DNA of 64,000 nt, taken from Tubulanus polymorphus (Eukaryota > Animalia > Nemertea). The notes under the pieces were generated by a model that had not been told where the DNA came from, did not search any database, and saw nothing but the letters and a program-made list of their open reading frames with translations. The translations under genes and the position numbers were made by a program. Location of the stretch: the NCBI RefSeq assembly GCF_964204645.1, contig NC_134028.1, positions 15,507,653 to 15,571,652 of the forward strand, given 5' to 3'. Of this stretch, positions 8,104-57,252 are shown piece by piece (positions within the stretch are counted from its first letter, which is position 1; each line of letters opens with the position of its first letter).

Positions 8104-8188
8104 TTATTAGGGAAAAAAATTACTTGTGGTGATTAGTGGTGTCTAGTACTCTAGTACTCTGGTATGAAACCCACATCTTCCAATTACT

Positions 8189-8676: not shown

Positions 8677-8744
<68 letters not shown>

Positions 8745-11243: not shown

Positions 11244-11275
11244 AATCTTAATTTTAATAAAACTTTTTATAATAA

Positions 11276-14026: not shown

Positions 14027-14029
14027 TAA

Positions 14030-19220: not shown

Positions 19221-19293
19221 TATTAGATATTTAAATCATTTAACTAAATTCAATAATTATTTGACTATTTAATTTATTTTCAATGTAGAATTG

Positions 19294-19938: not shown

Positions 19939-20252
19939 ACTTTACTCACACTTTTAATATTGAAAATCTCAATTATTTTACTCACACTTTACTCACACTT
20001 TTAATATTGAAAATCTCAATTATTTTACTCACACTTTACTCACATTTTTAATATTAAACAATTTTATCATTTTACTCACACTTTACTCACACTTTTAATA
20101 TTGAAAATCTAAATTATTTTACTCACACTTTACTCACACTTTTAATATTGAACAATTTTATCATTTTATTAGCGCTTTTATATTAAAAAGTGTGTTTATT
20201 TTTGGAAAAAAGCAAAAAAAAAAAAAAAATTTTAACACACGCGCAGCTGTTG

Positions 20253-20465
20253 TTACGCGCACTCACTGTTTATGTGTGTCACAATTTTACTACGTAATAT
20301 TTCTAAAATTTCAATTGTATCTTTTATTTCTAGTGAATCAATATAATTTCTAACATTTTCCATGTAAGGTTTAATATATTTATCAATGTATTTTTTACAA
20401 TATGGGCAATAATATTGATTTTTATTAACATCACTTTTTTCTGTTTGGAACTCACTGTCTCCCAT
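20253..20465 (-). pseudogene. Third copy of the deleted pPolB N-terminus
   Basis: Translation identical to 1971-2183. Confidence 0.85.
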
Positions 20466-21842: not shown

Positions 21843-22519
21843 TTTTTTTTCCACACATTTTTTGTCAAAAGTACATAGGCTTTTTTACATTACCGCTGTT
21901 GCCGATACAATCCGTCTCATATGATTCAGCTCAGTTCGATCTACAAATACTCCGTGCGAATTTTGAAGAATCAACGTTACAAAAGCACTGTCGGGCCGTA
22001 CATCGAAAATTGAGCCCCATTCAAAGAGCCGACATGTTTTTCTAAGTCGTCTTTCCGAAATCTACCGCACGTTTCTGGTCACATCGATTATCAATTCAAG
22101 CATAAATTAACAAATTTATTACCCAAAGATTGCACATTCTGTCGCGGTTTTTAAAAACTAATTTTAACAATAACCCATTTTCCTCATCAAATTATAATAC
22201 CAATACACAGGAAATTTACTACTTCAGATTTTAAAAGCACTGTCGAGCCGTAAACATCGACAAATCGACGTGTGTCACTACATCGTCGTTCCGGGAATCA
22301 GCTTCGAGTTTCTCCTCATTCTGAGAATCAAATCAAGTACAAATTAATTTATTACTACCAGTGATTTGGCTGCGGGCGTAAAGCAGTTAATTTAGCAATA
22401 CCTATTTTTCTTTACAAAATTTACCGTGTTTTTACTAAGATAAATCATAAGTGTACCGGGGAGTCGTAAGCCTAAACTAAACACGCCGAAGAGATATAGC
22501 GGAGAAAAGCTGTTATGTC

Positions 22520-22604
22520 AGTAATTGGAAGATGTGGGTTTCAGATCAGAGGTCGAAGGTCGACCACGCATCACCACAAGTAATTTTTTTTCCTTATAAA
22601 TGGG
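22520..22604 (+). repeat. Left TIR (includes promoter motif and ATG of the first ORF)
   Basis: Reverse complement of 37305-37389. Confidence 0.95.
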
Positions 22605-22926
22605 AGATAGAAAAGCATTCTTAGCAACAATAAATAACAGAATTAAACCAACAAAAAAACAATTTGAAATAAAAAAGTTAGTTGATGTTACAAAAGAAAT
22701 TGAACATAAGATATTGAAATTAGAAAAGATAAAAACTAAATATGGAGAGAAAGTATCAGCTAATTTAAGCTACTGTAATGTTAGTACATCACGAGAATTT
22801 AAAGTGTTTTTACCCGATAAATGGGTTTCATTGAGTACAGAGGAATTGAAAGATTTAGTAGGATTTAAAATAATCTATCATGGAAAAAATGAAGACGGTC
22901 ATCATGATTTAGAAATTGTTGATTAA
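22600..22926 (+). CDS. 108-aa hypothetical protein, possibly OB-fold/ssDNA-binding
   Basis: TAAATG start inside the TIR. KTKYG..VFLP..IIYHG pattern. The fold call is inference only. Confidence 0.7.
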   Translation: MGDRKAFLATINNRIKPTKKQFEIKKLVDVTKEIEHKILKLEKIKTKYGEKVSANLSYCNVSTSREFKVFLPDKWVSLSTEELKDLVGFKIIYHGKNEDGHHDLEIVD

Positions 22927-23059
22927 ATTTAAAAAAATAAATTAATAAAAATAATGAATATCTAGAATCTGAAATGACTTATCTGGACAATTTAATTGCT
23001 CCGCGTAGATGGTGCCATAAACGGCACCCACACAGTGATAGACAAAAGTAGTGAGATAT

Positions 23060-23458
23060 TCAATTATTTTTTTGCTTTTTTTCTAAAATATTAATCCATT
23101 TTTTTATTATCAATTTTGGAATTTCAGAAGTACTTTCATTTTTGATAGCAGTTGGTTCAGAATTACTAATATCATGAATTCTATTTGATTTCTTATACCA
23201 ATTACACCCAATCAAAATGAATACAATTACAAATCCAACTGTAAAATATAAATATTTATCAAATATTCTATTATCAGAAGGAGTAGAAATAACAATATTT
23301 TCACCATTTTTATTAACATTTTTATTACTTATTTTTTCTTTTACAGCTTTTTTATATTCTTGTGATTTAATTCCTAATTGCCGAGACCATTCAATTTATT
23401 TCTGAGTTCTCGGTTTTTTCTTCACAGTTAATTCCTTCACTTCTTTCACCTCGCTCAT
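23060..23458 (-). pseudogene. Small basic TM protein with a premature stop at codon 21
   Basis: MSEVKE..KKKPRTQK*IEWSRQLG..YLYFTVGFVIVFILIG. The homolog at 15041-15409 has Q at the stop position. Confidence 0.75.
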
Positions 23459-23996
23459 TTATTATAGAAATATTTTTACTTTCAATATTTGAAAATGTTA
23501 TAACCCCAGTTGATAATAATGTCATAAATCCACCTAATTGAAACGATAAATATCCAATCCATTTATTTAATTCAGTCATTACTAAATAATCATTTTTTAA
23601 ATCGGAATATAATCTATTTTCATCTTCAATTGGAAGTATATAATTACATAATTTACTATAACCTTTTACTACATTTTCTGATATCAAGTCATTAATTATA
23701 GCTGTTCTCGCAGCTTCATAAATCTTAAATAATCTAATAATTTCATCTGATTTCATTGTATCTAATTCATTATAAGTTAAATTTTTACCGACAAATTTTT
23801 TACATTTTCCAGATGCTATTAATATTTCTAATTGATGTTTACAATAAAGATAATATTCATAATTATTATTTGTTGTAACATTATTTAAAGCACCATCATC
23901 TGGAATTAATTTGTTTTCTGTTATTCCTAAATCATCTAAAGTTTTTTCAATTGGAACATCACCATTTTTAGATTTTATTTTCTTTTCACCTACCAT
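23391..23996 (-). CDS. 201-aa conserved Polinton protein with C-terminal hydrophobic segment
   Basis: TAAATG start. Homolog in the older element at 15399-16266. Confidence 0.85.
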   Translation of the reverse strand: MVGEKKIKSKNGDVPIEKTLDDLGITENKLIPDDGALNNVTTNNNYEYYLYCKHQLEILIASGKCKKFVGKNLTYNELDTMKSDEIIRLFKIYEAARTAIINDLISENVVKGYSKLCNYILPIEDENRLYSDLKNDYLVMTELNKWIGYLSFQLGGFMTLLSTGVITFSNIESKNISIINERGERSEGINCEEKTENSEIN

Positions 23997-24019
23997 TTAT
24001 ATAACAAAAAAATTAGTTG

Positions 24020-24300
24020 TGATGTTGCAACTAGAATTCAACTAGAATGTAACTAGAATTCAACTAGATTAACAAGCTAGTTGAAATATTGTTATTTTTG
24101 TTTATTTCTTGTTAAATCTAGTTGATTTTTGTTCCAACTACCAATAACTAGAATTCAACTAGAATGTAACTAGAATTAAACTAGATTAACAAGCTAGTTA
24201 CAATATTGTTAAAATCTAGTTGATTTTTGTTACAACTACCAATAACTAGAATTCAACTAGAATGTAACTAAATATGTAATTGATTAACAAACTAATTGAA
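24020..24300. repeat. Intergenic array of AACTAGA-type short repeats
   Basis: CAACTAGAATTCAACTAGAATGTAACTAGA-like blocks at ~24028, 24146 and 24243. Confidence 0.8.
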
Positions 24301-24301
24301 T

Positions 24302-24910
24302 TTAAATAAATTCATATTTAAATGGGTGTTGTAATCTAAATAGTAATTTTGATCTTTTAATATTTTTCAACTTATCCATATATTCATTATGTAAATCATG
24401 TGGAATAATATCATTTTCCTCAAGTGCATTTTTCATTGATTTTCTATCTTTATTGTAGAATAAAACTAGAAATCTTATATTCTCCCTAAAGTCTTTAACA
24501 ATTGAATTATATTTTTGATTTAAAACCCATGTTGTTATCCCAAAATGTCTCCCAGAGAAAGCTAGATAACATAACTCACTTTCTCTAACTTTTGAATCAT
24601 GTAAATTTGCGCAATCATCTATGATAAATAATGTATTTGATCCTTTATAAATATCAATTGCTGTTTTAATACAATTATTTAAATTTTCTTTTACTGTTTT
24701 AGGATCTAATATAATAAATTTATTATTTCTAGTAATATTTCTATCATAAGTTTGACTAAATTCATACGTTGGGCAAAATAATACTATATTATCAAAATAG
24801 TTTTCATAAACAGTTTCTAATAAATTTAATATAAAATAAGTTTTTCCACAATTTGTTACGCCAGATATTAACATATTATGAGGCTCAAATATAAATAATT
24901 CTTTATTCAT
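24302..24910 (-). CDS. A32/FtsK-HerA family genome-packaging ATPase
   Basis: Walker A GVTNCGKT, Walker B IIDD, SGRHFGI, NQKY..IREN-like motif. Confidence 0.93.
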   Translation of the reverse strand: MNKELFIFEPHNMLISGVTNCGKTYFILNLLETVYENYFDNIVLFCPTYEFSQTYDRNITRNNKFIILDPKTVKENLNNCIKTAIDIYKGSNTLFIIDDCANLHDSKVRESELCYLAFSGRHFGITTWVLNQKYNSIVKDFRENIRFLVLFYNKDRKSMKNALEENDIIPHDLHNEYMDKLKNIKRSKLLFRLQHPFKYEFI

Positions 24911-26037
24911 TTATATATTTTTAATTTTACTTGATAATATCCATTCATTGAATTTATCTGGCCATCCAACCCATTTTACTAAAGAATATTTTTTCTTTTA
25001 ATAGTTTTTGTTTTTAATACTTTTTCAATTTTATATTCTTGTTCTAGATTTTCAGTAGTTAAACTTAATTCTTCTTCGTAAAAGTAGCCATCAACTTCTT
25101 CACCATCTAAATCTTCTAATTTATAGACATATGGGTTTGTTGTTATTACCTTTTTTATTTTGTATATTTCTCTAGTAAAATTTCGATCGTATCCTTTATC
25201 AAATATCTTTTTATACTTAGAAATTCTAACATTTTGACCAACTTTAAATTTAGGTTCACCAAAATCATCTACAAGAAATGCTCCATATAAATTATTCCAA
25301 ACAATTTCAGCATTTTCAGGTTTTCTAGCATCAATAGGTTTCATTCCAATAGAAGAATGATAAGAATTATTATATCCTTCTATCAATTTTGGTAAAACAT
25401 CAATCCATTTAAAAGTATTATTTGCTGTAAAATATTTCCACATTCTTGTTCTTAATGTTCTATTAAATCGTTCAACAACTGCTGCTTTTTTATCTGATTT
25501 TGTTGAAAAATATTTAATATTATGATTATCTAAGAGTTCATGAACAAGTGAATTATCAAACTCTTTTCCATCATCAAATTGTATTTTTTCTGGTTTTAGT
25601 TTATCATCCGAAAGAAATTTTCTTAAAACATTTGATGTTTGTACAGCATCTTTTCTATAAAGTGGGAAGCTCCATACATAACGACTAAGAATATCAATTA
25701 TATTCAATAACCACCAATAATCATCATTATCTTTCTTAACATTTTTCATATCAATTAAATCTCGTTGCCACTGTTGATCTACATAACTTACCATAGTTTT
25801 ACGAGTTTTATATTTTCTAACAATTTTTTTATGTGTTGTATATGTTGGTTGTTCTAACATAAATTCATTTATATCTTTATATTTAACTGAATTTTGTGGG
25901 ATTATCTTATCTAATTTATCTTGTTTTACTTTACTCCATATATTTTTAGTAGAAGAATAAGCAACCGAACTCTCAGGGTTGTAATATAAATTTCTTAAAT
26001 ATTGTTCTTTAGTATTAGGAGTTTTTTTACCACCCAT
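24911..26037 (-). CDS. Retroviral-like (rve) integrase with C-terminal chromodomain (frameshift at ~24990)
   Basis: DDE motifs QWQRDLID, IQFDDGKEF, KAAVVERFNRT. YKIEKVL continues in a shifted frame as YSLVKWVGWPDKFNEWI, whose TAA abuts the ATPase ATG. Confidence 0.93.
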
Positions 26038-26067
26038 TTATATATCCTTAATTTTAACTTTATATTT

Positions 26068-27315
26068 CTAATATTGAATACTATCTAATTGTGAATTTAC
26101 AATATTTAATTGTGCGTCAGATACAATATAAATATGCATTTTGAAATTTTTGTCCCCTCTTTTCTTCGCCATGAATAATTGTATTCCATCTTTAGTGTTC
26201 TGTAGTTTTTTCCCAGAACCATGTAATGAATTATCCTCTGTTGTTCTAAAATCTAACCATAATGCATATTTATTACCGGTATAATAATCAATTTGATTAA
26301 TATTACAATTTTCAAATGATTTTACTTTTTCATTCATAAAATGTTTTCTAATTTCTGGCCATTGATCAATCATTCTCATTCCTTGACAAAATATTTTATT
26401 TGCTATTCCTTCGATAGTTATTTCAACTTTTGTTATTTCAGGATTATAATAATTATCTACCTTTATTGCGCCATTAGAATATGTTGCAATAGTAAAAAAT
26501 ATTAATATACCTTTAATAGATCTTCTTGGGAAGTTAATATTCTCATTAATTATTTCATCATTTGCATCAATAGTTACAGTTTTAAATTTATCAATATAAT
26601 CATATAATAATGAAAATCCTTGATTGTATTGAGTTTGAATTGTGCTAGCAATATTTTCATTAGTAACTGTGTTATATTCTAAACATATATTCGATAATTT
26701 ATAACCCATATCTTTAACAACGCTAGATAATACAATTTCATTTACAGGAGCAAATGTTATCTCAAATATAATATCTTCTTGAATTGCATATTTATATAAA
26801 GGTGCATTGTTATTTATCAATTCAAAGTCTAATGGAATTTTATATTTGCTTCCATAAATCTTTTTAATCAAATTATCTGTGGCACGAGTTACTATTGCGT
26901 CATTAGCTCCTGATCTTAATTTATTATGGTTTTCCGATTGAATACCCTGAAATATCATATTATTTCTATTTTCTTTAGTTAACCATAAATCTTTATAATG
27001 CATAAATAAATTATAATCATCTAATGAGAAAACTGTTTCTGGACCAATCTTTATAGTTAATTTTTTAATCAAATATCTCCCAACATTATCAACAACATAA
27101 TTATTATCATGACCAATTACTTTTATATCAGCTGATAAATAAATACTATTTGGAACATAAAAAGTATTTTGTGTTAATCTAGGGATTCTAACATATAAAG
27201 TTTCATCGGGATTAATATTTGAAGGGTTATGAGTAATTATATGATGTGATCTTTCTGCTTTAATGGCATTAGATATTCTAGAAATCTTAGAAGGACTTAT
27301 ATAACTCCCACTCAT
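26068..27315 (-). CDS. Major capsid protein (double jelly-roll, inferred)
   Basis: 415 aa, intact and beta-strand rich. Position and size fit a Polinton MCP. Conserved in the older element. The fold needs profile or structure confirmation. Confidence 0.78.
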   Translation of the reverse strand: MSGSYISPSKISRISNAIKAERSHHIITHNPSNINPDETLYVRIPRLTQNTFYVPNSIYLSADIKVIGHDNNYVVDNVGRYLIKKLTIKIGPETVFSLDDYNLFMHYKDLWLTKENRNNMIFQGIQSENHNKLRSGANDAIVTRATDNLIKKIYGSKYKIPLDFELINNNAPLYKYAIQEDIIFEITFAPVNEIVLSSVVKDMGYKLSNICLEYNTVTNENIASTIQTQYNQGFSLLYDYIDKFKTVTIDANDEIINENINFPRRSIKGILIFFTIATYSNGAIKVDNYYNPEITKVEITIEGIANKIFCQGMRMIDQWPEIRKHFMNEKVKSFENCNINQIDYYTGNKYALWLDFRTTEDNSLHGSGKKLQNTKDGIQLFMAKKRGDKNFKMHIYIVSDAQLNIVNSQLDSIQY

Positions 27316-27335
27316 TTATTTAACAAAAAAATTAA

Positions 27336-28770
27336 TTATTTATTTTTGATCATGTTTACTAAACCAAAAATAATAGCACTTACAACTGTAATTAAAAATA
27401 AAATAATATGTTCAGCAGCAAAGTTAAGAATATTCCCAGCAGATTTCAATATAAAACCAACAATTGATGCAATAACTCCTGGCAATGCTGCAGCAGATTT
27501 TTTAAGTAGTTCCCATAAATATTTTGCTAATTTCTTTAAACCATCCTTAACTTTATCTTGTATAGAATTATTATCATTCGGGGGTTTATCCGGTTTATTG
27601 GGAGTAGGAGTAGATTTCAAAGCATTTGATATTGCTAAACCAATTGTTGTAAATAACATAGTTACAGCTGTTAGAATTGAAAGAATTGTTATTCCTTCTA
27701 ATTTAAATAATAACTTTATTCTATCTTTTAATGATATTTCAGAATTTAGTTTAATCAACAAATCTTTAAAAATAACTTTTAATCTATTAATATTATAATC
27801 ATATGATTTTAACAATAATTTAATTTCTTCTTTTTGTAATTCTATGTTATATTCTAAATCATCTTTTTTTATTTTCTAAACGTAATTCTTTTTGCCTATA
27901 TTCTATTTCATCAATTACTTGATGATCTAAATCAGACTTTAATTGTTCTATTTCTTTATTTTTATCAGTTAATTCTTTTTCTAAAGTTCTAATTTTAAAA
28001 TCTCTTATACTTTTATCATGCGCAATTTTATTAGATGCAAGTCTTATACTAATAATTTCTCTAATTGCTTTATCAGAAAATATATCTAAATCTTCTAATT
28101 CTTGATCTGTTGCATCAATTAATCCATTCGGTAAAAGTTTTTCAATTGGAACTTTATTTGATTTAAGTTTACTATTTTTGGAAGTTATATTCTGTTCAGA
28201 AGTTGTTTCTGTTTCTGATTTCTTTTTGATTATTTCAAATAATTCATTAATTCTTTGTTTAAATACATCTATATTATCATCTATTTCTTTTTGTGTAACA
28301 TCAGTTATTTCATTACTATTACTTATTATTTTAATTCTATCTGGTTTTAATTTTTCTAAAGTTGATTCTGATAATATTTTATTTTTATTATTTTTATAAG
28401 TGATATCAATATAATAATCACCTTTCAAACGATAATAACATTTACCATTATCTAAAAATTTTAATTGATCTGCTAAAAGTCCAACGTCTTCATCATTTAT
28501 GTTAAGTTTAGATTTTTCAATTAAATCTTCTAATTTAGGTATTTTGTTTAAATTATCTAAATCTTGTTTTACTAAATCTGGATCTAAATTTTCAGGATTT
28601 AATTGTGATTCAGCATTTTTAATATAATCAGGCATATTCAAATTATTACTATATTCTGGCTCATTACCATCATTAAAACTTGTTTCATCAAAATCAGGTG
28701 GTTGTTCATCAGTTATACCAGGTTCATCAAAAGGATCCATTCCAATATCTTCTCCACCTTCTACATCCAT
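27336..28770 (-). pseudogene. Acidic/coiled-coil protein with multi-helix hydrophobic C-terminus, split by a +1 frameshift in an A-run at ~27864-27870
   Basis: 303-aa and 159-aa ORFs join as ENKK-DDLEYNIELQKEEIKLLLKSYDY. The relic at 57253-57870 has the same linker. Confidence 0.8.
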
Positions 28771-28786
28771 TTATATAATAAAAAAA

Positions 28787-30233
28787 TTAAAATTTAAAAT
28801 ATAATATTCCTCCTATAACAATTCCTATACAAGTTATAGCTAATTTAGTATTTTCATGGGATTTATTGTCATTATCAGTTTTAATTATATCATGTTGAAT
28901 AACACCGTGTGGGTGCCGTATGGCACCATTATCAGTTTTAATATCACCGTGTGGGTGCCGTACGGCACCATTTTCTGTAGTATTGTAATCTTTTATTTTG
29001 GAATCATTATCCAATTTAATATTCTTAGTTTTAGTTTCTGTTGATTGAATATGTTTTTTATTTTTTTCACCTTCCATTAATTTTGTAGCAGTAATAATCT
29101 TTTTATTTATATCATTTAACCCAAATGAATTATTTATTGTTGCAGTTTTAATTAGATTATTATAACCAATTATGTTTCCCATCTTTAATACTAAATCATT
29201 AGAAATAATTAATAGATTAGGGCCTATACAATAATTTAATCTAATATGTGATTTATCTAAATAATTTTGATATCTTATAATGTTTTCTGGAATCGATCTA
29301 TTTTTATCATTATGTATGGAATCTTCAAATAATACTTTGAATTGTTTCTGTGTATCAAATGATGTATTCAAATTTCCAATTATCGGTGATCTTGTTTCAA
29401 CTTGCGCACCTAAAATACATATCAAATAAGTTCTAATAGATTGATTTATTCTTTGTATACCTGATTTAGTAAAACCTTCATTATTTTCTAAAATGAAATA
29501 AACCCAACCATTATTGTTTTCTTGTTTTAAATTATCATAAAATTTCGGTAATTTATTGAAATTTAATGTTTCTAAATCCTTTGTTTCTATTTTACCACAA
29601 CCTAATTTATTATTATAGATATTATAAAAGCTATTAGATGGTATGGGAAGTGCATAATATTCTGCAATCTTATTAGGGCAAGGAAGTGACCTTATTGTTC
29701 CAATTTTTGTTCTAAAATCAGAATTATTTATATCTATATTAAATTCATTACAAATTTTATAAAACTTTGATGAATTAATATTATTATCTAATTCTTTAAA
29801 ATATCTTGATCCTGGCAAAGCGCACTCTAATTCATTTAATATTATTCTGATTTGAGAGTATGTATGAAATCTAAATAAACTTTGAATTAATTTATATTTA
29901 GAATTATTCAAATGATCATTCCAACTAATTCCACAACCTGTTGTTGCACAATAAACAGCAAAATTTAATTGGTTCTTTCTGCCAATACTTCATATTAGAT
30001 TTTAATAACCATTGTTTTTCATCTTTCAATTTTTTAAAATTAATTTAATATACATGAAATATATTTTCCATCTTTGCATTAAAATTATTAGTTTCAGTAA
30101 CATAAATTTCTAAATTAGTTAATGAATCTAAAACTTCATTTCTATATGTAATATCTTTATTAAAATCTATTGCTGGAATATTATATTTAATTGATTTATT
30201 ATATTGAAAAGCTTTTGGAAAACTATCTACCAT
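28787..30233 (-). pseudogene. Conserved Polinton protein (QLNFAVYCATTGCG...FRFH) with C-terminal TM anchor; 5' part frameshifted
   Basis: 62-aa and 374-aa ORFs are joined through the disrupted region 29912-30044. The N-terminus is paralogous to 30250-30801. Confidence 0.75.
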
Positions 30234-30249
30234 TTATTTAATAAAAAAA

Positions 30250-30801
30250 TTAATAATTTATTAATTCTTTTAATAATTTATCTTGTTCTTCAACTGTTAT
30301 ATGACCATTTAAACTCATGATATAATCTAGTGTGTTCTTAGAAAAATTAATATTATTATTCAATTCTTTAAAATATTTTGAACCTGGTAAAGGACATTCT
30401 AATTCATCTAATATTAATTTTATTTGAAAATAAGTATGAAATCTAAAAAGTGATAACATCAATGGTAAACTTGGTTTGTTTAAATGATCATTCCAACTAA
30501 TTCCACAACCTGTTGTTGCACAATAAACAGCGAAATTTAATTGGTTCTGCCAATACTTCATATTAGATTTTAAAAACCATTGTTTTGCCTCATTTAAATT
30601 TTTGAAATTAATTGTATACACATGAAATATATTTTCCATCATTACATGAAAATTATTACTTTCAGTAACATAAATATATAAATCAATTAATGAATTTAAA
30701 ACTTCATTTCTATATGTAATATCTTTATTAAAATCAATTGCTGGAATATTATATCTAATTGATTTATTATATTGGAAAGCTTTTGGAAAACTATCTGCCA
30801 T
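30250..30801 (-). CDS. Truncated paralog of the downstream gene, fused to the tail of the upstream gene
   Basis: MADSFPKAFQYNKS vs MVDSFPKAFQYNKS. The tail NTLDYIMSLNGHITVEEQDKLLKEL duplicates 30828-30906. Confidence 0.7.
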   Translation of the reverse strand: MADSFPKAFQYNKSIRYNIPAIDFNKDITYRNEVLNSLIDLYIYVTESNNFHVMMENIFHVYTINFKNLNEAKQWFLKSNMKYWQNQLNFAVYCATTGCGISWNDHLNKPSLPLMLSLFRFHTYFQIKLILDELECPLPGSKYFKELNNNINFSKNTLDYIMSLNGHITVEEQDKLLKELINY

Positions 30802-30906
30802 TTATATAATTTGAAAATTAATAATTTATAATTCTTTTAATAATTTATCTTGTTCTTCAACTGTTATATGGCCATTTAAACTTATTATATAATCTAGTGT
30901 ATTCTT

Positions 30907-31248
30907 TCATTTATTAATTTCTTTTATATTAGTTTTAATTTTTTCTTTATTACTTTTTATATTTAATTTTGAACTTATACCGGTTAAAACACTTGAACTT
31001 AATCCTAACACACCAATTGATATAGCTAAAGGTGTTAATGGGCTGAATATTGCTAAAAATGTTATTACAGAACTAATTGTAACCGAACCACTAATAATCA
31101 AATAATATATAATTTTACTTTTTAAATATTTTTTTTTTATCTTTAAGTCACTTTCAAATTCTAATATTTGTTTTTCTAAATATGTTTTTAATTTAGTTTT
31201 ATTTATATCATGAGGAATAATATCAATACTATCAACTTTATCTTCCAT
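30907..31248 (-). CDS. Small two-TM protein (probably originally extended to ~30828)
   Basis: Two hydrophobic stretches. TAAATG start. The frame continues past TGA as KNTLDYIISLNGHITVEEQ. Confidence 0.7.
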   Translation of the reverse strand: MEDKVDSIDIIPHDINKTKLKTYLEKQILEFESDLKIKKKYLKSKIIYYLIISGSVTISSVITFLAIFSPLTPLAISIGVLGLSSSVLTGISSKLNIKSNKEKIKTNIKEINK

Positions 31249-31264
31249 TTATTTAGAAAAAAAA

Positions 31265-31685
31265 TTACTTATTATTAAACTTATAAGCAACAAATATAAC
31301 AATAACAGTTCCACCTAAAATCCAAATTATTTCATATTTCTTCTGTTCATTACTTGGGGTATAATAATCTGATAATTTAGGTTTGTATAGATGTAATTTT
31401 TCTTTATTGGTTACCGCGTTATATAAACTCATTGCATCATCAACTGATTAAAAATCTCTATGTGAAATCTTCTGATCATATAATTCTTTGTTAATATAAT
31501 CCATATAGTTTTGCCTCTTTTCTCTATATTTAAGCTTTATTGTATTTCTCTAACGCTAAGTTATGTCTTCTTTGTTCTCCTAATGAACTATTTTTATCAA
31601 TATGTTTAAATAAATATCCACCACCAGTAAATGCCAAAGCGTTAACAATTGCCGATCCTATAATAGTTATAATTGCAGAAGCCAT
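31265..31685 (-). pseudogene. Small membrane-associated Polinton protein (stops/frameshift), absent from the ORF track
   Basis: MASAIITIIGSAIVNALAFTGGGYLF..EQRRHNLALEK..PKLSDYYTPSNEQKKYEIIWILGG. TAAATG start. Confidence 0.7.
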
Positions 31686-31709
31686 TTATTTAGTAAAAAA
31701 ATTATGCAT

Positions 31710-31931
31710 TTATATGGGAGGAATATATTTTTGTTTTTCCAAATAATCAATAGTTAAATTAGATAAAGTAATTGCTAATGTTAACTTTAAAATATCATTT
31801 ATATCAAATCTATCAACATTAACACTTCCCATTTTGAATACTTTTTTTAATACCATTGAATAACCAACAGTTCCAACTGATAGTAATGCTCCATTATATA
31901 ATCCAGTTATTATCCACTTATTATCACTCAT
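31710..31931 (-). CDS. 73-aa hydrophobic protein
   Basis: T-tract/TAAATG start, tightly packed with neighbours. Confidence 0.75.
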   Translation of the reverse strand: MSDNKWIITGLYNGALLSVGTVGYSMVLKKVFKMGSVNVDRFDINDILKLTLAITLSNLTIDYLEKQKYIPPI

Positions 31932-31934
31932 TTA

Positions 31935-32288
31935 TTAATCAAAAAAATTACTATCTTCAAAATATTTAGTTATCTTAGTGATGATTAATTCAACATTTAT
32001 TTTATTACTAGTTTCATTTGTATATATTTCAATTATTATTTTTCTAATATCATCGATGATAAAATCTTCATTTAATTCATAAAATCTTAAAGATTCTCTA
32101 ATTAAATTAGTAATCTTTTCTACATTTAAAGTTTCTTTATCTATTGTTGTTTTATACTCAAATGTTGTTTCATTAGAAAATGCAATATTTTTAATATGTG
32201 TAATTACATCATTAATGTTAAATTTCATTTCTTTCTCACGTTTAAAATCAAATCCAAAACATATACTCGGTCCAACAGTTATATTCAT
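31935..32288 (-). CDS. 117-aa hypothetical protein
   Basis: T-tract/TAAATG start, tightly packed with neighbours. Confidence 0.72.
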   Translation of the reverse strand: MNITVGPSICFGFDFKREKEMKFNINDVITHIKNIAFSNETTFEYKTTIDKETLNVEKITNLIRESLRFYELNEDFIIDDIRKIIIEIYTNETSNKINVELIITKITKYFEDSNFFD

Positions 32289-32304
32289 TTATATAGTGAA
32301 AAAA

Positions 32305-33062
32305 TTACTCTTTACATCTTATAACTAATTCATAAATTACAGGAAAGTTATTCAAATCAATTAAATAACCATTATGATTTCTTATTTCTAATTTAAAATT
32401 ATTGAAATGTGGAATACAAGGTTTGAAATCACATTCAGTTAAATTATAATTTATTTGAGTTCCAAATTGTTTGACATTTTTTAATGGTAAAATATTTAAT
32501 AAACCAGAATTACAAATTGTATCTTTAGTTGCTTCAAATGTTTTTGTTGGGTCAATAAATTGCAATAAATATAAAAGTGTGTAAAAGGTATTAAGTTTGA
32601 TCTACCTTCTGCGTGTGCTGTAACAATATTTGGGTTAATTCCTAACAGTTTAGCTAAAGGTTTTCTTACTGTAAATTTAAATTGTTCGTTATTATCTAAC
32701 CTAATCTTTATTTTATTAGAACTATCACTTTTTAAAATTCTAATATTAAATTTAGAATCACTTCCTAATTTAGCTCGAGCTTTTCTATTAATTTCTTGTG
32801 CTAATGTATCTAAATTATATAATCCTGGTTTTAAATATATAAAATACCATTCATTCATTTTTTTGTAAAAGATTGAAAAAATTAAATGTTCTAGACTTTT
32901 ATCCGATATATTGTAAAATGAGTTACATAAACTTATATTTACTAATTTTAAATCAACACAATTCTTAAATTCTCTATCTAATTGTACTAGTAAATTATGT
33001 GATTTATAATTTGTAAGTTTTCTAGAATCAACAAATATTCTGTGTTCTTTTAATTCTACCAT
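32305..33062 (-). pseudogene. Minor capsid protein (penton, single jelly-roll), 1-bp frameshift at ~32556
   Basis: N-terminal IFVDSR..LVNISLCNSFYNI..LKPGLY and C-terminal LEIRNHNGYLIDLNN are typical of Polinton/virophage pentons. YIYCNL/IDP rejoins with one base added. Confidence 0.75.
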
Positions 33063-33130
33063 TATTTATAACATAAAAAAATTACCGCTCATCACTAAAA
33101 ATTAATTTTAATAAAATTTTTCCTAAATAA

Positions 33131-34444
33131 ATGGATGAGAAGATAGCATGCGAAATTTGTGGTGAACTTCTAAGAAAAAGTAACATGGCTCGACATATGA
33201 AAAAACATGATGAAAATTATAAACCCCCTAAAATAAACTGTCCAAAATGTAATAAATTATTCTCAAGAAATTATGTTAAAAAACATTCAGAGAAGTGTAG
33301 AATTAATGGCGCAACGGCTAATGTTGATAGTAATGAAAGTAATAGTAATTCTGCTGAAGTTGAACCTGAAGTTATTTGGAAAAGACCTTTCTTATTCTAT
33401 GATAAGGATAATATAAAAAATCATTTCTGTGAGCCTTGTCGAATAAAATATAGCCCTGAAAATATAGAAGAGTGGGAGAATCATCGATTTCGTAAAGTAC
33501 ATATGGATAAAATTTCTAATAAATTTGAAACTGAATTTAATGAAAGAAAAAATAATTTATTAGAAAAAATAAAATATGAGAAAACGTTACCAGATAATAA
33601 AGAAACAGTTGAAAAGTTAGAAAAACAATATAATGAATTAACAAGAAAAACATATTATTGTAAATATTGTAAATTGATTATTACAACAAGTAATTCAAAT
33701 CTACATAATAGAACAATAAAACATAAAGAAAACGTAAGAAAATACCAAGAGCTTAATGAAGATCTATTACCAATAAATTATAAACAAAAATGCCCACAAT
33801 GTATTTATGCGACCTTAAGACAAGAAGGTACTGTGTTATTTTGTAATGAATGTGGATGGCAAAAGAATTTATTGGGTGAAGAAAAAACTAGAGATTTTCT
33901 CATAGATCCAAAATTAAATTATCTAGATGAAATTTTTAAAATATTTTCTATGGAAGATCATACACCAGAATATATGCAATGGCTTGAAAAAATGAAAATA
34001 ATAGAAAATAAAAATGGTAAAATAACTAAAAAAGATATTATAAATACAATTATTCCGTCAACATTTAACACAAAACAAAAGAAAATGTATTTATATTTAT
34101 TATTTAACGATTATTATGAAAAACCTAAATTAACAGAAGAAGATATGGAAAATATAAAAAAAATATTCAAACAAATATTAATGTATCATTTGGAAAATAG
34201 AATAACAGATTCAATAAATTATGAATTCTTTTTAAATAAGATTGTAAATTATTTAAACCTAGATATTATAATTCCATTCGACGAATTAACAAACAAAAAG
34301 AAACAAACAGAGCGAGATGAAATGTGGAACAAGACAGAACTTTATTTAAATGAAAAAAATGGAATGGAAGAAGAACCTAAACAATTAAATGAAAATGAAG
34401 AAGCCAATAGTGATTTCGAGTTTGATGATATAGATCCATTTTGA
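33131..34444 (+). CDS. Multi-C2H2 zinc-finger protein with C-terminal VLTF3 (poxvirus A2)-like domain
   Basis: Four CxxC..H fingers, zinc ribbon CPQC..CNECG, then PKLTEE..IF..SINYEFFLNKI..RDEMWNK, recalling the VLTF3 C-terminal motif. Intact, 437 aa. Confidence 0.7.
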   Translation: MDEKIACEICGELLRKSNMARHMKKHDENYKPPKINCPKCNKLFSRNYVKKHSEKCRINGATANVDSNESNSNSAEVEPEVIWKRPFLFYDKDNIKNHFCEPCRIKYSPENIEEWENHRFRKVHMDKISNKFETEFNERKNNLLEKIKYEKTLPDNKETVEKLEKQYNELTRKTYYCKYCKLIITTSNSNLHNRTIKHKENVRKYQELNEDLLPINYKQKCPQCIYATLRQEGTVLFCNECGWQKNLLGEEKTRDFLIDPKLNYLDEIFKIFSMEDHTPEYMQWLEKMKIIENKNGKITKKDIINTIIPSTFNTKQKKMYLYLLFNDYYEKPKLTEEDMENIKKIFKQILMYHLENRITDSINYEFFLNKIVNYLNLDIIIPFDELTNKKKQTERDEMWNKTELYLNEKNGMEEEPKQLNENEEANSDFEFDDIDPF

Positions 34445-37309
34445 TAACCATAAGGTAATGTTTTTATACCATCATCTAAAATATGCCTTTTATCATCAAA
34501 TGGATTTAAACTAGTTTTTTCAACTTCATTAATGTACATCTCATGATCTTCTGATCTTAAACAATTCATTTTGTGTTTCATTACAATTGATTTATATAAA
34601 CACTTTATATAATCTTGAAATTCTATATGTTTATCAACCACATGTTTTGTTATTCCTTTTAACTTTTTAGCTTCATGATCTTTTGTTCTGTAACTATACA
34701 TTTTACTTCTTATCCCAACAAATTCAATCATTTCATCACCCCCTAATTCATCTTTAAACTTACCAGGAATCTTTTTATTATCATTGCTAAATAGTTCATG
34801 ATCTTTGGGATAATTGCTAAAATCAAAATGATGTTTTAATGTTTTTAAGTCTTTTGTTATGTCATTTGTCTTGATTTTTAGTATGTAGGCGTCAGTATTG
34901 TTGGCTATTAATGGAAATCCACAGTTAAATGTACCATCTTCAGTTGATAAATCATAAACATAATCTGTTGGGTTATATATTTCAAATAAATCTTTAACTT
35001 CTTCAGTTTACTCATTTTTTACATGGCTTAAATTAAAGCAATTTGGTTTAGATTTAATCAATCCAATATTCATATTAAAACCTAATGAATTGCATAATAT
35101 ATTTAATCCTGATATAGCAACTTTTCCTTTTTGAGCTAAAGATATTGTTTTGCGGTTTTTGAAACTTTTAGTACCATCGGCTGCGTAGAATCCAATGAAG
35201 AACCATTTTCTTAAATTATTTTTTGCATTTAATACATAATCTGGAACTATCTTTTCTTTAGTTGAAGTATTACTTTTCACTATTGTATGAATATAGAATT
35301 CGTTATTATATTTTATAGCAAAATCTTTAGGATTATTCACATGTATTCTATAACATTGCGATGATTTCATAACATCTATGATTTTGAATGTTTTATGTGA
35401 ATAAACTTCTTCACAGAATTTCTTAATTCTTTCTAATAATTTAAAGTCTTGATTGCATAAATACCAGCAATATTGAGTGCGATTAACATAATTATACACA
35501 CCTGCTGAACCATCACCCATGAAGAATCCTTTGATAAAATATTCTTTTTCTTCTAATGTTTCGGGTTCTATATTATAAATATTATCAATAATTTCATCAA
35601 ATGACATATGATTCATTCTTTTGAAAAATCTTTTATGTAATAATTCATCTCCAATTTTTATATCAGTTGGTTTTATTTCATCGCCATTTCGTTTAATTAA
35701 ACTATGATCTTCTGTAACATCTACAAATCCTAATTTAGTTCTAACTCTATAGATTTTCTTATTTGTTTTATGCCTAATAATATTCTTTAATTTTTTCCAT
35801 CCATTTCTTGTCCAAACATCCATTAAACAATTTATTTGTATTAATTCTTTTTCTCCATATGAAATATAACATTCATTTTGTTTTGGAATTATTTCTGAAA
35901 TTCTTATCAATATTTTATCATTACATTTTAATAATATTGGGGTGTCAGCTGTTACAGAGTCAAAATATAATATTTCAATATGCTTTTCTACATAGATAAA
36001 TTTTACGATGATGATCACTTTCTGTTCTAAAGAATAAATCAATTTGTTTTAACCACATATAATGTTCATTTTCATCTTTTTTATAATATAACAAATCTAT
36101 AGCATTTTCATCATCATAATATTCTGTTAAATATAAAGCTTCCAATGTATAATCTTTAATATTTTCACCTTTTGTCTTTGGTAATTGCATTAATTCGAAT
36201 ACATTTATTTTTAAATTATTAATTTTTTCTATTTTAGGAATCATTTTTATAGTTACTGGATATTGATCAATTTTATATCATGTTTCATATTTCCGATAAT
36301 CTGTTATTCTACAAACATTTTCCTGTGTTGGATGTAAGCAACTAATAATTGACCATAGAAAACATTTATTATCTTCATTTTGAATATTTATTACTGCTTT
36401 TGTTATAAATGGTAATTTAATATAAGATGATGCTTTAATATCCTTTTCTGTTGTAAAGTTTGAATCATTTTTAAACATTTTATTACTTTTTGATGTTTTA
36501 TTTCTTTTTGTATTATAAACATTTAAATCTAAATATATTATTTCATTCAATGTTAAGCCAGAACCCTCAAAATATCTTTCTTCAATATGACGTTTAAATT
36601 CATTTGATATTTTTTCTAACTTCTCTTTTATTTGTGTTTTTGAAATTATTTCTTCAGAGAGTGTTTGAATATTATAATTCATTTTTTCTTCTGACTTTAT
36701 AAAACTTACTTTCCCAGAGATACTAATTTTTGGATATTCAACATCTGTTATCAAATCTAGTATTTTTTCTATTATTTCACTAAATTTGCTATAATCTTCT
36801 ATTGTTGTTCCTTTAAAAAATCTAAATATAATAGCTGCAGGACCAATTTTACTATGTAATGTTTCTAAAATTTCAATTGTATCTTTTATTTCTAGTGAAT
36901 CAATATAATTTCTAACATTTTCCATGTAAGGTTTATTTGAAATGGATTTAGTTTTTGAAGTTGATTTTTTTACTTGTTGAGGTTTATTATCAAAATATTC
37001 TGATCCTAAAACATTTTTATTTAAATTTTTATAATGTTTTTGTGATTCGAGATGTCTATTATAATTCCTTTTTACTATAAATTCATTACAAACTGCACAT
37101 TTTATTTCATCCACATTCATATTTTCTAATCGTTCTTTTCTTTCATTGGAATTTTCTGGAGTTTCAAAATCTATTACATTTTTTATATGATTTGCAGATT
37201 TTTCATGTCGTGATTTTTGGGATTTATCGATGTATTTTTTACAATATTGACAATAATATTGATTTTTATTGACATTATTGTTTTCTGGTTGGTGTTCATT
37301 CTCCCCCAT
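34342..37309 (-). pseudogene. Protein-primed family B DNA polymerase (pPolB), internally deleted, intein-containing
   Basis: N-terminal zinc fingers and OTU-like INIQNEDNKCFLWS..HY block. In-frame TGA at 36278. Deletion of exonuclease and motifs A/B at ~35990. Motif C ILYFD^TDA, then FDFSNY..PGKFKDE..RSKMY..KLKGI..FDDKR..TLPYG. Confidence 0.93.
34897..35958 (-). mobile_element. Intein with LAGLIDADG homing endonuclease, 354 codons, one nonsense codon (35008-35010)
   Basis: Block A SVTADTPIL, block B VDVTEDHSL, LAGLIDADG blocks IKGFFMGDG and FIGFYAADG, block F YVYDLSTEDGTF, terminus IANN/T. Excision restores YFD-TDA. Confidence 0.93.
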
Positions 37310-37389
37310 TTATAAGGAAAAAAAATTACTTGTGGTGATGAGTGGTCGACCTTCGACCTCTGATCTGAAACCCACATCTTCCAATTACT
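37305..37389 (-). repeat. Right TIR (includes promoter motif and ATG of pPolB)
   Basis: Reverse complement of 22520-22604. Confidence 0.95.
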
Positions 37390-37764
37390 TATGTCGACGA
37401 GGTATCAAAATAAAAGAATATATTACTTTATTCGGCCGCGGGCCTCTATATCAATACCATCAATACTCTATATTTCCTACAGTACATACCGATCATTGTC
37501 AAATCCACAAGGTATTTACTAAATACAAGTATATAACACACTCCTATCCGTATGCTGGACTCACACTTGACATTCGTAGTAAGCGTTCGCTGTGGGGGAA
37601 AGGAGATCGTTCGCTGTGTCGCTTGAAGTGTTTATCCAGTTTTACGCGACCTTAAAGCTTTAGTATGGTGGCTGATAAGATAAAAAAAACACGAATTTGC
37701 AAATGAGGGCGACATAACGACAAAACGACAAAACTAAAATAACGCGAGAAAACAATGATTTTGA

Positions 37765-38598
37765 TTTTGTCGCCCGCGACAATTCAATATTTTGGTTTTA
37801 TCGCCCGAGACAATTCATTATTTTGGTTTTATCGCCCGCGACAATTCAATATTTTTGTTTTATCGCCCGCGACAATTCATTAGTTTGGTTTTATCGCCCG
37901 CGACAATTCATTAGTTTGGTTTTGTCGCCCGCGACAATTCAATATTTTGGTTTTATCACCCGCGACAATTCATTAGTTTGGTTTTATCGTCCGTGATAAT
38001 TCAATATTTTGGTTTTATCGCCCACGACAAGTCATTACTTTGGTTTTATCTCCAGCGACAATTCATTATTTTCGTTTTGTCGCCCGCAACAATTCTTGTT
38101 TTTGGTTTTGACGCCTGCGACAATTCATTATTTTGGTTTTATACTTTGTTTTTGTCGCCCGAGACAATTTTTTTTTTTTGGTTTTGTCACCCGCGACAAT
38201 TCAATATTTTGGTTTTGTTGCCCGCGACGATTCAATATTTTGGTTTTATCGCCCGAGATAATTCATTATTTTGGTTTTATCGCCCGCGACAATTCATTAT
38301 TTTGGTTTTATCGCCCGCGACAATTCAATATTTTGGTTCTATCGCCCGCGACAATTCATTATTTTGGTTTTATCGCCCCCGACAATTCAATATTTTTGTT
38401 TTATCGCCCGCGACAATTCATTAGTTTGGTTTTATCGCCCGCGACAATTCATTAGTTTGGTTTTGTCGCCCGCGACAATTCAATATTTTGGTTTTATCAC
38501 CCGCGACAATTCATTAGTTTGGTTTTATCGCCCGCGACAATTCATTAGTTTGGTTTTGTCGCCCGCGACGATTCATTAGTTTGGTTTTGTCGCCCGCG
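37765..38598. repeat. 31-bp satellite (TTTTGGTTTTRTCGCCCGCGACAATTCATTA)n
   Basis: Read directly. Internal dyad TTGTCGC-CC-GCGACAA. Confidence 0.95.
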
Positions 38599-39418
38599 AA
38601 ATATCTTTCTTCAATATGACGTTTAAATTCATTTAATATTTTTTCTAACTTCTCTTTTATTTGTGTTTTTGAAATTATTTCTTCAGAGAGTGTTTGAATA
38701 TTATAATTCATTTTTTCTTCTGACTTTATAAAACTTACTTTCCCAGAGATACTAATTTTTGGATATTCAACATCTGTTATCAAATCTAGTATTTTTTCTA
38801 TTATTTCACTAAATTTGCTATAATCTTCTATTGTTGTTCCTTTAAAAAATCTAAATATAATAGCTGCAGGACCAATTTTACTATGTAATGTTTCTAAAAT
38901 TTCAATTGTATCTTTTATTTCTAGTGAATCAATATAATTTCTAACATTTTCGATGTAAGGTTTATTTGAAATGGATTTAGTTTTTGAAGTAGATTTTTTT
39001 ACTTGTTGAGGTTTATTATCAAAATATTCTGATCCTAAAACATTTTTATTTAAATTTTTATAATGTTTTTGTGATTCGAGATGTCTATTATAATTCCTTT
39101 TTACTATAAATTCATTACAAACTGCACATTTTATTTCATCCACATTCATATTTTCTAATCGTTCTTTTCTTTCATTGGAATTTTCTGGAGTTTCAAAATC
39201 TATTACATTTTTTATATGATTTGCAGATTTTTCATGTCGTGATTTTTGGGATTTATCGATGTATTTTTTACAATATTGACAATAATATTGATTTTTATTG
39301 ACATTATTGTTTTCTGGTTGGTGTTCATTCTCCCCCATTTATAAGGAAAAAAAATTACTTGTGGTGATGAGTGGTCGACCTTCGACCTCTGATCTGAAAC
39401 CCACATCTTCCAATAACT
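38599..39418 (-). mobile_element. Duplicated right end of the Polinton (truncated pPolB N-terminus plus TIR with one terminal substitution)
   Basis: Copy of 36570-37389 at offset 2029, followed by the same TATGTC and flank. Confidence 0.92.
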
Positions 39419-39794
39419 TATGTCGACGAGGTATCAAAATAAAAGAATATATTACTTTATTCGGCCGCGGGCCTCTATATCAATACCATCAATACTCTAT
39501 ATTTCCTACAGTACATACCGATCATTGTCAAATCCACAAGGTATTTACTAAATACAAGTATATAACACACTCCTATCCGTATGCTGGACTCACACTTGAC
39601 ATTCGTAGTAAGCGTTCGCTGTGGGGGAAAGGAGATCGTTCGCTGTGTCGCTTGAAGTGTTTATCCAGTTTTACGCGACCTTAAAGCTTTAGTATGGTGG
39701 CTGATAAGATAAAAAAAACACGAATTTGCAAATGAGGGCGACATAACGACAAAACGACAAAACTAAAATAACGCGAGAAAACAATGATTTTGAT

Positions 39795-46665: not shown

Positions 46666-49064
46666 TACATATAGTGTCGAATATTAAGGTCATTTTGGCA
46701 GATTCATTTTTTTTTAAAGTGATATTAAAGCGATCATTCAAGTGATCCTACTTAATGAAAGATCTACGGAAGCGATAAAGGGCCTCGAGTTGTCGCGTTC
46801 CAACTCGACAAGTCGCCATATTTATGTCGATATATCGCGATATATCGCATCAAGTCAACATAAATATGTTGACACATCGTGACGTTTTGACGAATTTAAA
46901 CTCAGTCGTCATATCACTGGCGTCCTCATCGCCAGTCACAACGCCAGTCACATGGAGTCGTACGTGTTCTACTTTCTGCGACGCGACACGACTGTCACAA
47001 CCAACCGACGCGCTCTTGCGACTGGCAGAAACTAGTCGCACACAATCGTATTGCAACCGACTTGCACTGAAACTTGCGATGCAACGCGAGGATCGCATCG
47101 TGTCACAAGACCAACCTACATCCGGCTTTAAGTTACTTCGGAGCACCAGAAATATCTTTTTTTTCGTTCAAAAGACCTTTCGCTTGAAAATTCTTTCGTC
47201 GGAACAAAATTTATTTCGTTCGAACCAATAATATTCTACACGATTGAAGCAATTTGAAAAAATCGTAAGAACAAAGTTGAACAAACTTTTTTTTGTCCAA
47301 ACGAAAGGTTTTTCGTTCGAACTATCGTTCAATTGAACAGAATCTTTTTTAATTTGAACAGAATTTTCTTGTCAGAACATTAAGTTTTTCGTTCGAACAA
47401 GTATATTGAAAAAAGTTCAATCGAACAGAATTGTTTTCATTCAAACATTCGTTCGAAAAAATTGTTTTCGCTCGACCAAATTTTTTTGCCGGGAAAATTT
47501 CATTTCAACAATAACATAGCTTTTTATTCGAACACATTTTTTGTCAGAATGAAGAAAATTTTTGGTTCAAGCAAAAAGCGTATTGTTCGATCAAACAGAA
47601 TTATTTTCATTCGAACAAGATTTTCTTGTTGGAACATTAAGTTTTTTGGTCGAACAGCGTGTTAAGGTCGATTTGGAAATTTACTCGGTCTGGTATATGT
47701 TGGATTACTGTGTATGTCATTTGTCAGGACATTAAACAGAAGACAACTTAGGATACTACCTTGCGTGACTCCACTAGTTTGACCGACTTATTCCATGATG
47801 AAGCGTTCCGTTGATTTCGGCCACAAGTTTTCGTTCAGAGATAACTGCTGAGCCATTTGGGCGACCTATAATTGATACTGTTTCCTAATAGCCTGTTTAG
47901 TAATGGCTGATGTTGTGCCTTATCAAATGCTTCGTCGAAATCCACCGTTGAACTGGATTCTAAGACTGTGCAGAAAACCCGTTATCGCTGCTTTGCAGCT
48001 ATATTTATTATTATTATTTTTTTCCACACATTTTTTTTCAAAAGTACATAGGCTTTTTTACATTACCGCTGTTGCCGATACAATCCGTCTAATATCATTC
48101 AGCTCAGTTCGATCTACAAATACTCCGTGCGAATTGTGAAGAATCAACGTTACAAAAGCACTGTCGGGCCGTAAACATCGAAAATTGAGCCCCATTCAAA
48201 GAGCCGACATGTTTTTCTAAGTCGTCTTTCCGAAATCTACCGCACGTTTCTTGTCACATCGATTATCAATTCAAGCATAAATTAACAAATTTATTACCGA
48301 AAGATTGCACATTCTGTCGCGGTTTTTAAAAACTAATTTTAACAGTAACCCATTTTCCTCATCAAATTATATTACTGATACACAGGAAATTTACTACTTT
48401 AGATTTTAAAAGCACTGTCGAGCCGTAAACATCGACAAATCGACGTGTGTCACTACATCGTCGTTCCGGGAATCAGCTGCGAGTTTCTCCTCATTCTGAG
48501 AATCAAATCGAGTACAAATTAATTTATTACTACCAGTGATTTGGCTGCGGGCGTCAAGCAGTTAATTTAGCAATACCTATTTTTCTTTACCAAATTTACC
48601 GTGTTTTTACTAAGATAAATCATAAGTGTACCGGGGAGTCGTAGGCCTTAACTAAACACGCCGAAGAGATATAGCGGAGAAAAGCTGTTATGTCGACGAG
48701 GTATCAAAATAAAAGAATATATTACTTTATTCGACCGCGGCCCTCTATATCAATACCATCAATACTCTATATTTCCTACAGTACATACCGATCATTGTCA
48801 AATCCACAAGGTATTTACTAAATACAAGTATATAACACACTCCTATCCGTATGCTGGACTCACACTTGACATTCGGAGTAAGCGTTCGCAGTGGGGGAAA
48901 GGAGATCGTTCGCTGTGTCGCTTGAAGTGTTTATCGAGTTTTACGCGACCATAAAGCTTTAGTATGGTGGCTGATAAGATAAAAAAAACACGAATATGCA
49001 AATAAGGTCGACATTACGACAAAACGACAAAACTAAAATAACGCGAGAAAACAATGATTTTGAT

Positions 49065-57231: not shown

Positions 57232-57252
57232 TTATTTAAGAGAAAGAATTAA

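Follow-up and report, generated by a model that had tools for sequence, protein, structure and literature searches.

Evidence for an intein in the catalytic motif of a Polinton DNA polymerase and for related inteins in giant viruses

The intein and its host gene

A stretch of 64,000 nucleotides (the window) from contig NC_134028.1 of Tubulanus polymorphus (assembly GCF_964204645.1, positions 15,507,653 to 15,571,652) contains an integrated Polinton (Maverick) element, and the protein-primed DNA polymerase (pPolB) gene of this element is interrupted by an intein-like insertion (Table 1). An original prediction, made from the DNA letters, had described a LAGLIDADG intein here that was masked by a single TAA codon. 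The translation agreed with it: read through this stop, which is codon 317, the minus strand encodes 354 codons from SVTADTPIL to GFPLIANN, preceded by HIEILYFD and followed by TDAY, with block B (VTEDHSL) and the two LAGLIDADG motifs GFFMGDG and GFYAADG all present. The insertion is in frame and lies between YxD and TD of polymerase motif C (YFD|TD), which is the pol-c site of PMC549080 and of the prediction. Its removal restores the host motif, and the closest empty (intein-free) relatives read HIEIMYFD|TDSY.

The residues of a class 1 intein, Ser1, Asn354 and Thr+1, are found in the window copy, as are the TEDH of block B and the Asp of block F (VYD). T82, E83, D84 and H85 of block B were near-invariant among 40 aligned relatives. 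The penultimate His is lacking, as had been noticed before; the window copy ends with NN. This lack is usual in the family, since about 140 of 247 collected relatives end with KN and about 60 with HN.

Profile searches for Hint and LAGLIDADG domains gave matches above the cut-offs for TIGR01445 (intein_Nterm, 31.3 bits, cut-off 24.5) and PF14528 (LAGLIDADG_3, E 2.6e-6, 28 bits, cut-off 22.5). The Pfam Intein_splicing profile PF14890 matched the window intein below its cut-off (E 1.1e-6, 29 bits, cut-off 35.8) and the relative P0045 above it. An AlphaFold model based on an alignment of 40 sequences had a pLDDT (predicted local distance difference test) of 89.8, and its top PDB matches were LAGLIDADG inteins, namely TliVMA (E 7e-19), PI-PkoII (E 6e-17), PhoVMA and PI-PfuI. 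A Hedgehog/Hint domain belonging to the host protein was considered and rejected because of the LAGLIDADG core and the in-frame place in motif C. The insertion is almost certainly a genuine intein inside the pPolB of an integrated Polinton.

The interrupted gene gave a 61% match to P0044, a protein bearing the pPolB domain PF03175. A deletion at about position 35981 has removed approximately 730 codons, corresponding to residues ~423-1154 of P0377, the closest intein-free relative, and only eight N-extein codons survive between this deletion and the intein. With two stops and a large deletion, the window polymerase copy is a dead chromosomal fossil. The end of the deletion, just eight codons from the start of the intein, may be a break-repair scar near the homing site, or may lie there by chance.

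Table 1. Positions in the window of the intein, its host gene and the surrounding Polinton
Feature	Position	Strand	Remark
Intein, 354 codons, Ser1 to Asn354	34897..35958	-	Hint halves flank LAGLIDADG endonuclease; one in-frame stop
Splicing block B, VTEDHSL (Thr-x-x-His)	35698..35718	-	
First LAGLIDADG motif, block C, GFFMGDG	35509..35529	-	
Second LAGLIDADG motif, block E, GFYAADG	35173..35193	-	
Stop TAA at intein codon 317	35008..35010	-	Private or nearly private to window copy
C-terminal splicing blocks F/G, end FNCGFPLIANN, without penultimate His	34897..34968	-	
N-extein remnant, 8 codons HIEILYFD, first half of polymerase motif C	35959..35982	-	
pPolB C-extein from Thr+1 (TDAY)	34342..34896	-	75-80% identical to intein-free P0376-P0378
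pPolB N-terminal part, ending at deletion junction	35981..37309	-	Stop at 36278-36280
Polinton/Maverick, 14.87 kb	22520..37389	.	Integrated
Left terminal inverted repeat, 88 bp, begins AGTAATTGG	22520..22607	+	97.7% to right end
Right terminal inverted repeat, 88 bp	37302..37389	-	
Target-site duplication TATGTC, 6 bp, left copy	22514..22519	+	
Target-site duplication TATGTC, 6 bp, right copy	37390..37395	+	
Uninterrupted host repeat (insertion target), single TATGTC	48670..48720	+	Second copy 54397-54447
A32-like packaging ATPase	24302..24910	-	PF04665 E 3.2e-13
Retroviral-type integrase (rve)	24979..26037	-	PF00665 E 1.6e-8
Probable double-jelly-roll major capsid protein	26068..27315	-	Atlas look-alikes; lead only

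Filled and empty alleles in sequencing reads

Four sequencing runs were compared with the window at 85% likeness, and 12% of the raw-read run X6 was covered. The stop codon of the intein was a non-stop codon in 169 of 173 X6 reads, and the upstream stop in the polymerase gene was a non-stop codon in 285 of 293. Both stops therefore belong to the window copy or to few copies. The X6 depth was 136-254 in five bins wholly internal to the intein, 321-337 in two upstream bins and 339-478 in two downstream bins, so the intein is present in many copies. These depths give no exact ratio of intein to flank, as conserved flanks also draw more distant families.

Fifteen X6 reads (10 starts) and one contig of run X1, which may be the window's own source, joined position 34897 to 35960 and skipped 1062 nucleotides, the exact length of the intein; in this comparison the intervening letters were marked as not known, and the shorter sides of the skip reads were 30 and 20 letters. 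Since the stop was missing from nearly all X6 reads and 15 of them left out precisely the intein, filled and empty alleles, both of the types named in the original prediction, coexist under the same species label. Run X5, a marine metagenome (share 0.08), gave 44 records and was not used as evidence for a habitat.

The element is flanked by inverted ends of 88 bp and a 6-bp duplication of TATGTC and is therefore integrated, by its own route; a 6-bp target duplication is a criterion for Mavericks (PMC8097293). It is very improbable that the contig is an assembly chimera or a contaminating viral contig not integrated in the host. The high repetitiveness of the window would speak for this, but the duplication and uninterrupted host repeats occur in the same window, the X6 coverage is continuous from the intein into both flanks, and the same junction was found in independent protein records. 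The host-integrated location assumed in the original prediction is thus borne out.

Related inteins in other Polinton polymerases

The best matches to the window intein were inteins of other pPolBs, namely the fragments P0012 (76%) and P0002 (67%), P0044 (60%), P0045 (49%), P0046, P0047, P0048, P0053 and P0063. P0045 represents a cluster of 136 sequences, with contigs of up to 1 Mb, and P0047 a cluster of 121. Polymerases of family PF00136 ranked after the pPolBs, with up to 42% identity over the full intein length. The same D|TD site was filled in the intact pPolBs P0044, P0045, P0048 and P0053 and in the partial records P0046, P0047 and P0063. Block B and both LAGLIDADG aspartates were present in all nine pPolB inteins. 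The host polymerases differed in their motifs: relatives of the window polymerase contained DANNLYG and KLMNN, while P0048 contained DFCSLYP and KICLNSLWG.

Empty sites predominated among the 120 listed matches to the P0044 palm: 91 were empty, two were filled and one was filled in part. The pattern failed to score the other 26; ten of these were inspected, and seven were also empty. The only eukaryote-named relatives among the 120 listed pPolB matches were from Mytilus (46% to P0044). No relative of P0044 was found in IMG/VR. The pPolB-type block G pattern occurred in four IMG/VR and 29 GTDB stretches, of which one was an intein (in the PolB of a giant-virus metagenome-assembled genome, MAG) and none a pPolB. 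A scan of JGI metagenomes, in which 80 of 130 loci were kept, gave no match above 41% over the full length.

Relatives of the intein also occurred in unrelated proteins. They were identified in an ADP-ribosylglycohydrolase (P0101, GGD|TDT), in type II topoisomerases (P0253, P0274 and P0300, DxD|TDG), in an XRN exonuclease (P0278, GLD|SDL) and beside a Clp protease domain (P0035).

Probable movement among Polintons

The extein tree comprised 33 rows; these were what remained of 100 when redundancy was filtered at 68% and every filled row was kept. The eight filled rows need seven changes on this polymerase tree, at least six of which are forced by strong branches. Seven changes are no fewer than with shuffled labels (mean 7.2), i.e., the presence of the intein is scattered. 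The window C-extein grouped with three empty polymerases (75-80% identity). Some filled and empty exteins were nearly the same, with 97-98% identity between P0045 and P0339, P0340, P0341 and P0343, and 99.4-99.7% between P0047/P0348 and P0351.

Mismatches between such pairs were scanned at the protein level by permutation, with the position of the 35-residue segment left free. In the P0045 lineage, 10 of 35 residues mismatched at the site compared with 16 of 1156 elsewhere (scan p=0.0005), and the densest segment fell on the site in two of two filled/empty and two of two empty/empty pairs (p=0.0005 for each pair). A site-centred segment was absent from two filled/filled pairs, one near-identical empty pair and two pairs among the empty relatives of the window copy. 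The empty pPolBs of the P0045/P0046 lineage (the P0382-P0475 group) displayed a varied motif C, e.g., YMD|CDS, YFD|TDA and YID|TDG, and in many of them Cys replaces Thr at +1. The site-centred mismatches fit co-conversion together with selection for targets that would not be cut; ordinary recombination could give a similar tract.

P0048 belongs to a different pPolB class (branch 3.4). Its intein was 44-50% identical to the others, while its flanks were only 19-32% identical, and therefore a lateral jump between pPolB classes is suggested.

Several observations temper the case for movement. Around the site, the P0348/P0351 pair was free of mismatches, and the hot spot was thus seen in one lineage only. 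The jump between classes was seen in the single record P0048, and for its position in the clade the approximately unbiased (AU) test gave p=0.35. Intein and extein identities track each other among hosts of the same class (63/59, 66/70 and 57/51), and long co-descent with losses is therefore part of the history; plain inheritance with losses would also explain this pattern.

It could thus be supposed that the intein still splices but has lost homing, with one capture, passive carriage thereafter, and filled/empty pairs produced by ordinary recombination and occasional precise loss. The intein and extein trees agree for most hosts, as their identities do, and exchange of modules between Polintons is documented (10.1101/2023.08.22.554363). 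However, both endonuclease aspartates are kept in all nine pPolB inteins, which are just 40-60% alike between lineages, and no endonuclease-free mini-intein of this clade was found among the matches, in searches that favoured inteins of full length. The mismatch tract was also centred on the site in four of four filled/empty or empty/empty pairs of the one lineage and in neither of the two filled/filled pairs. We therefore consider passive carriage unlikely.

Origin of the Polinton intein clade

Intein trees were calculated from 164 of the 248 collected inteins and then from 42 and 39 hand-picked rows, using LG+G4 without a mixture model. In all three, the pPolB inteins formed a single clade (nine of 164 rows, support 99; seven of 42, 100/100; seven of 39, 100/100). 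When rooted on six archaeal pol-c inteins, this clade nested among viral-type inteins. Its sister group (93/92) consisted of nine rows including the giant-virus MAG locus L001. The sister rows share a C-terminal block of the FN[TC]G[FY]PL type, which occurred in 48 of the 248 collected inteins, and the intein of the giant-virus MAG locus L178 ends with FNCGFPLIVKN, as in pPolBs.

The original prediction had called the intein mimivirus-type. This held at the level of the family, but the nearest viral inteins were those of uncultured giant-virus contigs (40-42% identity), while Megavirus courdo11 reached 26% in the fold search. The other viral PolB matches of the fold search were a phycodnavirus fragment (30%), a Pandoravirus (25%) and a marseillevirus (20%). 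The related viruses may be Imitervirales-like, to judge by their PolB and neighbouring genes.

The prediction had further proposed that the intein moved between a nucleocytovirus PolB and this very pPolB. This was contradicted, as the closest relatives are the inteins of other Polinton pPolBs (60-76%), which form one clade. A recent transfer into the window element was likewise rejected, as the GC content of the intein (25.0%) lies within that of the Polinton genes (22-26%) and its closest kin are Polinton inteins. Membership of the intein family known from nucleocytovirus PolB was supported.

Some points limit the case for a viral origin. By the AU test, a tree in which the pPolB inteins fall outside the viral group was not rejected (p=0.099), and the sister branch (93/92) was not starred. 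In comparison with five viral-type PolB loci, 6-9 of 18 bases differed in the DNA around the site, which makes it unlikely that the intein homed directly from a virus of the present day. The capture appears to be old because intein identity tracks polymerase identity in most hosts and the composition matches that of the element. Composition and site DNA together point to an old and rare capture that was non-allelic and in which the D|TD motif common to both genes served as the guide. A similar argument was made for the link between archaea and Mimivirus (Ogata et al., 2005; PMC549080).

Alternatively, the donor might have been a polymerase of cellular or third-party viral origin in a protist, or the intein might have passed from a Polinton to giant viruses. 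Besides the result of the AU test, the long stem (0.41) below the pPolB clade would agree with this, and since the same intein family is also inserted at D|[TS]D sites of topoisomerase II, XRN and ADP-ribosylglycohydrolase genes, stepping stones exist. However, inteins of viral-type PolBs are much more abundant and varied (the search gave 704 long proteins, and PF00136 prevailed among the 120 listed), several branches separate the archaeal root from the pPolB clade, and prokaryotic genomes gave matches of just 24-37%. Such a route is considered improbable. The direction from virus to Polinton is favoured but not proven, and the best reading of the sequences is a single old capture from a nucleocytovirus followed by a cycle of homing and loss among Polintons.

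Proposed splicing, homing and capture

Judging from the motifs, intact copies would splice as class 1 inteins, with an acyl shift at Ser1 aided by the Thr-x-x-His of block B, attack by Thr+1 and cyclisation of the last Asn. Splicing would restore YxDTD and would be obligatory for polymerase function. The endonuclease would cut an empty pPolB gene, and repair from a filled copy would insert the intein; this could happen between chromosomal copies or between co-replicating elements. The first capture would have been that of a nucleocytovirus PolB pol-c intein, once and long ago, in a co-infected cell. Gain and loss may have alternated afterwards, including one or more jumps from one pPolB class to a distant one. 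The window copy is a dead member of the family, most other copies of which in this species are without the stop. The whole chain of class 1 splicing, homing among Polintons and first capture from a nucleocytovirus seems likely to us.

A wider interpretation is tentative and rather doubtful. Animal genomes might carry a live, gene-drive-like homing intein that converts Polinton copies singly and has crossed two distant polymerase classes. It might be engaged in an arms race, with empty Polintons altering the amino acids round their own catalytic motif so as to escape cutting, and it might testify to an earlier co-infection in which Polintons and an Imitervirales-like giant virus met in animal-lineage cells.

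Comparison with known systems

By its published description, the intein of Mimivirus R322 (Ogata et al., 2005; PMC549080) occupies the same position in motif C (YGD|TDS there, YFD|TDA in the window) and is alike in length (351 vs. 354 amino acids), Ser1, last Asn, Thr+1, Thr and His of block B, and LAGLIDADG domain. The window intein differs from nucleocytovirus pol-c inteins in its host, which is the protein-primed pPolB of an integrating Polinton with flanks only 17-30% identical to the viral PolBs, and in that its nearest viral relatives come from uncultured giant-virus contigs and not from Mimiviridae isolates. The archaeal pol-c inteins (PI-PkoII, PDB 2cw7; GTDB loci L123-L176) share its site and fold, but are 24-28% identical over long matches, approximately 390 amino acids long and possess another C-terminal block.

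Endonuclease domains inside Polinton pPolBs are known from HNH/EndoVII and VSR nuclease insertions (10.1101/2023.08.22.554363; PMC11161782). In the available text of these sources no Hint domain, LAGLIDADG motif or motif-C site is reported for them, while the window copy has a complete splicing apparatus within the catalytic motif. Jeong et al. (10.1101/2023.08.22.554363) described HNH and VSR insertions, and the words intein and LAGLIDADG do not occur in the available part of that paper. An origin of such insertions from intein invasions was suggested in PMC11161782.

Eukaryotic inteins have been placed in fungi, algae, protists and nucleocytoviruses (PMC5784728; PMC10710043, in the sections available). 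Viral-like DNA polymerase inteins on nuclear scaffolds of Klebsormidium, Tetrabaena and Hondaea (PMC10710043) are likewise endogenised in a eukaryotic nucleus. Those hosts are algae or protists, whereas the intein in the window is carried by a mobile element that exists in many copies and has both filled and empty alleles. The main text of PMC10710043 contains none of the words Polinton, maverick, animal and metazoa, and polinton, maverick and metazoa are absent from two of its supplementary files; the available text of PMC5784728 likewise lacks polinton. No Polinton intein appears in the accessible portions of PMC12220804, PMC13768754, PMC5718144, PMC8502044, PMC8097293 and 10.64898/2026.10.13.758929. 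The literature search, with InBase, Repbase, subscription papers and bioRxiv supplements outside its scope, found no described intein in a Polinton or a protein-primed polymerase. The case is apparently undescribed: the intein family is a known one, but the type of host protein and the carrier are new for it.

Taken together, the comparisons argue for an old, multi-lineage family of Polinton inteins with signs of continuing gain and loss, and not for a single recent transfer. If the host is an animal, a full-length intein would be present in many copies in an animal nuclear genome. The finding gives direct support to the intein invasion of pPolB that had been speculative in the available text of PMC11161782. 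It may also preserve molecular evidence that Polintons and giant viruses came into contact, a point relevant to whether Polintons parasitise these viruses. As one genome contains filled and empty alleles with up to 99.7% protein identity, homing among dispersed copies and escape of target sites can be tested by sequence alone.

The Polinton and its surroundings

The Polinton core genes found in the element were those of the pPolB, the rve integrase and the packaging ATPase. The capsid candidate had no Pfam match; its Atlas look-alikes scored 0.97-0.98, some in clusters with PF16903 or PF21738 on 10-24% of the members, which is of low recognition value. No Pfam match to a penton or protease was obtained among the 17 open reading frames (ORFs) scanned. 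The ends of the element begin with AGTAAT, not with the exact (AG)3 or (AGT)2 motifs of vertebrates, and the terminal inverted repeats are short. No host gene was recognised in the window, two possible LINE-like (long interspersed nuclear element) fragments had no reverse-transcriptase match in Pfam, and a search of the window against Rfam found nothing. An animal host is nevertheless considered likely.

Within the Polinton, a tandem duplication at 29765-30906 (~575 bp, 87% identity) yields two related ORFs. A duplication of approximately 2 kb at 36564-39996 (38593-39996 vs. 36564-37954, 96.9%) comprises the right end of the Polinton, host flank and the start of pPolB, and the second pPolB start runs into a 31-bp satellite. 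Decayed Polinton fragments at 10609-16240 and 56587-57901 contained pieces of capsid, ATPase and integrase genes, 70-92% identical to those of the main element, and were without pPolB or intein sequence.

A near-perfect palindrome occupies positions 1-10152, with arms 1491-4167/5907-8583 and 1-1457/8696-10152 at 100% identity. It has a central 24-bp tandem array, an ORF of 227 amino acids in each arm and ends that are ~80% like the terminal inverted repeat of the Polinton, and it looks like a non-autonomous palindromic Polinton derivative. One of its arms is repeated at ~17660-20555. Large arrays of 31-bp and 155-bp satellites extend over 37758-64000 and are interleaved with the repeat unit that served as the Polinton target.

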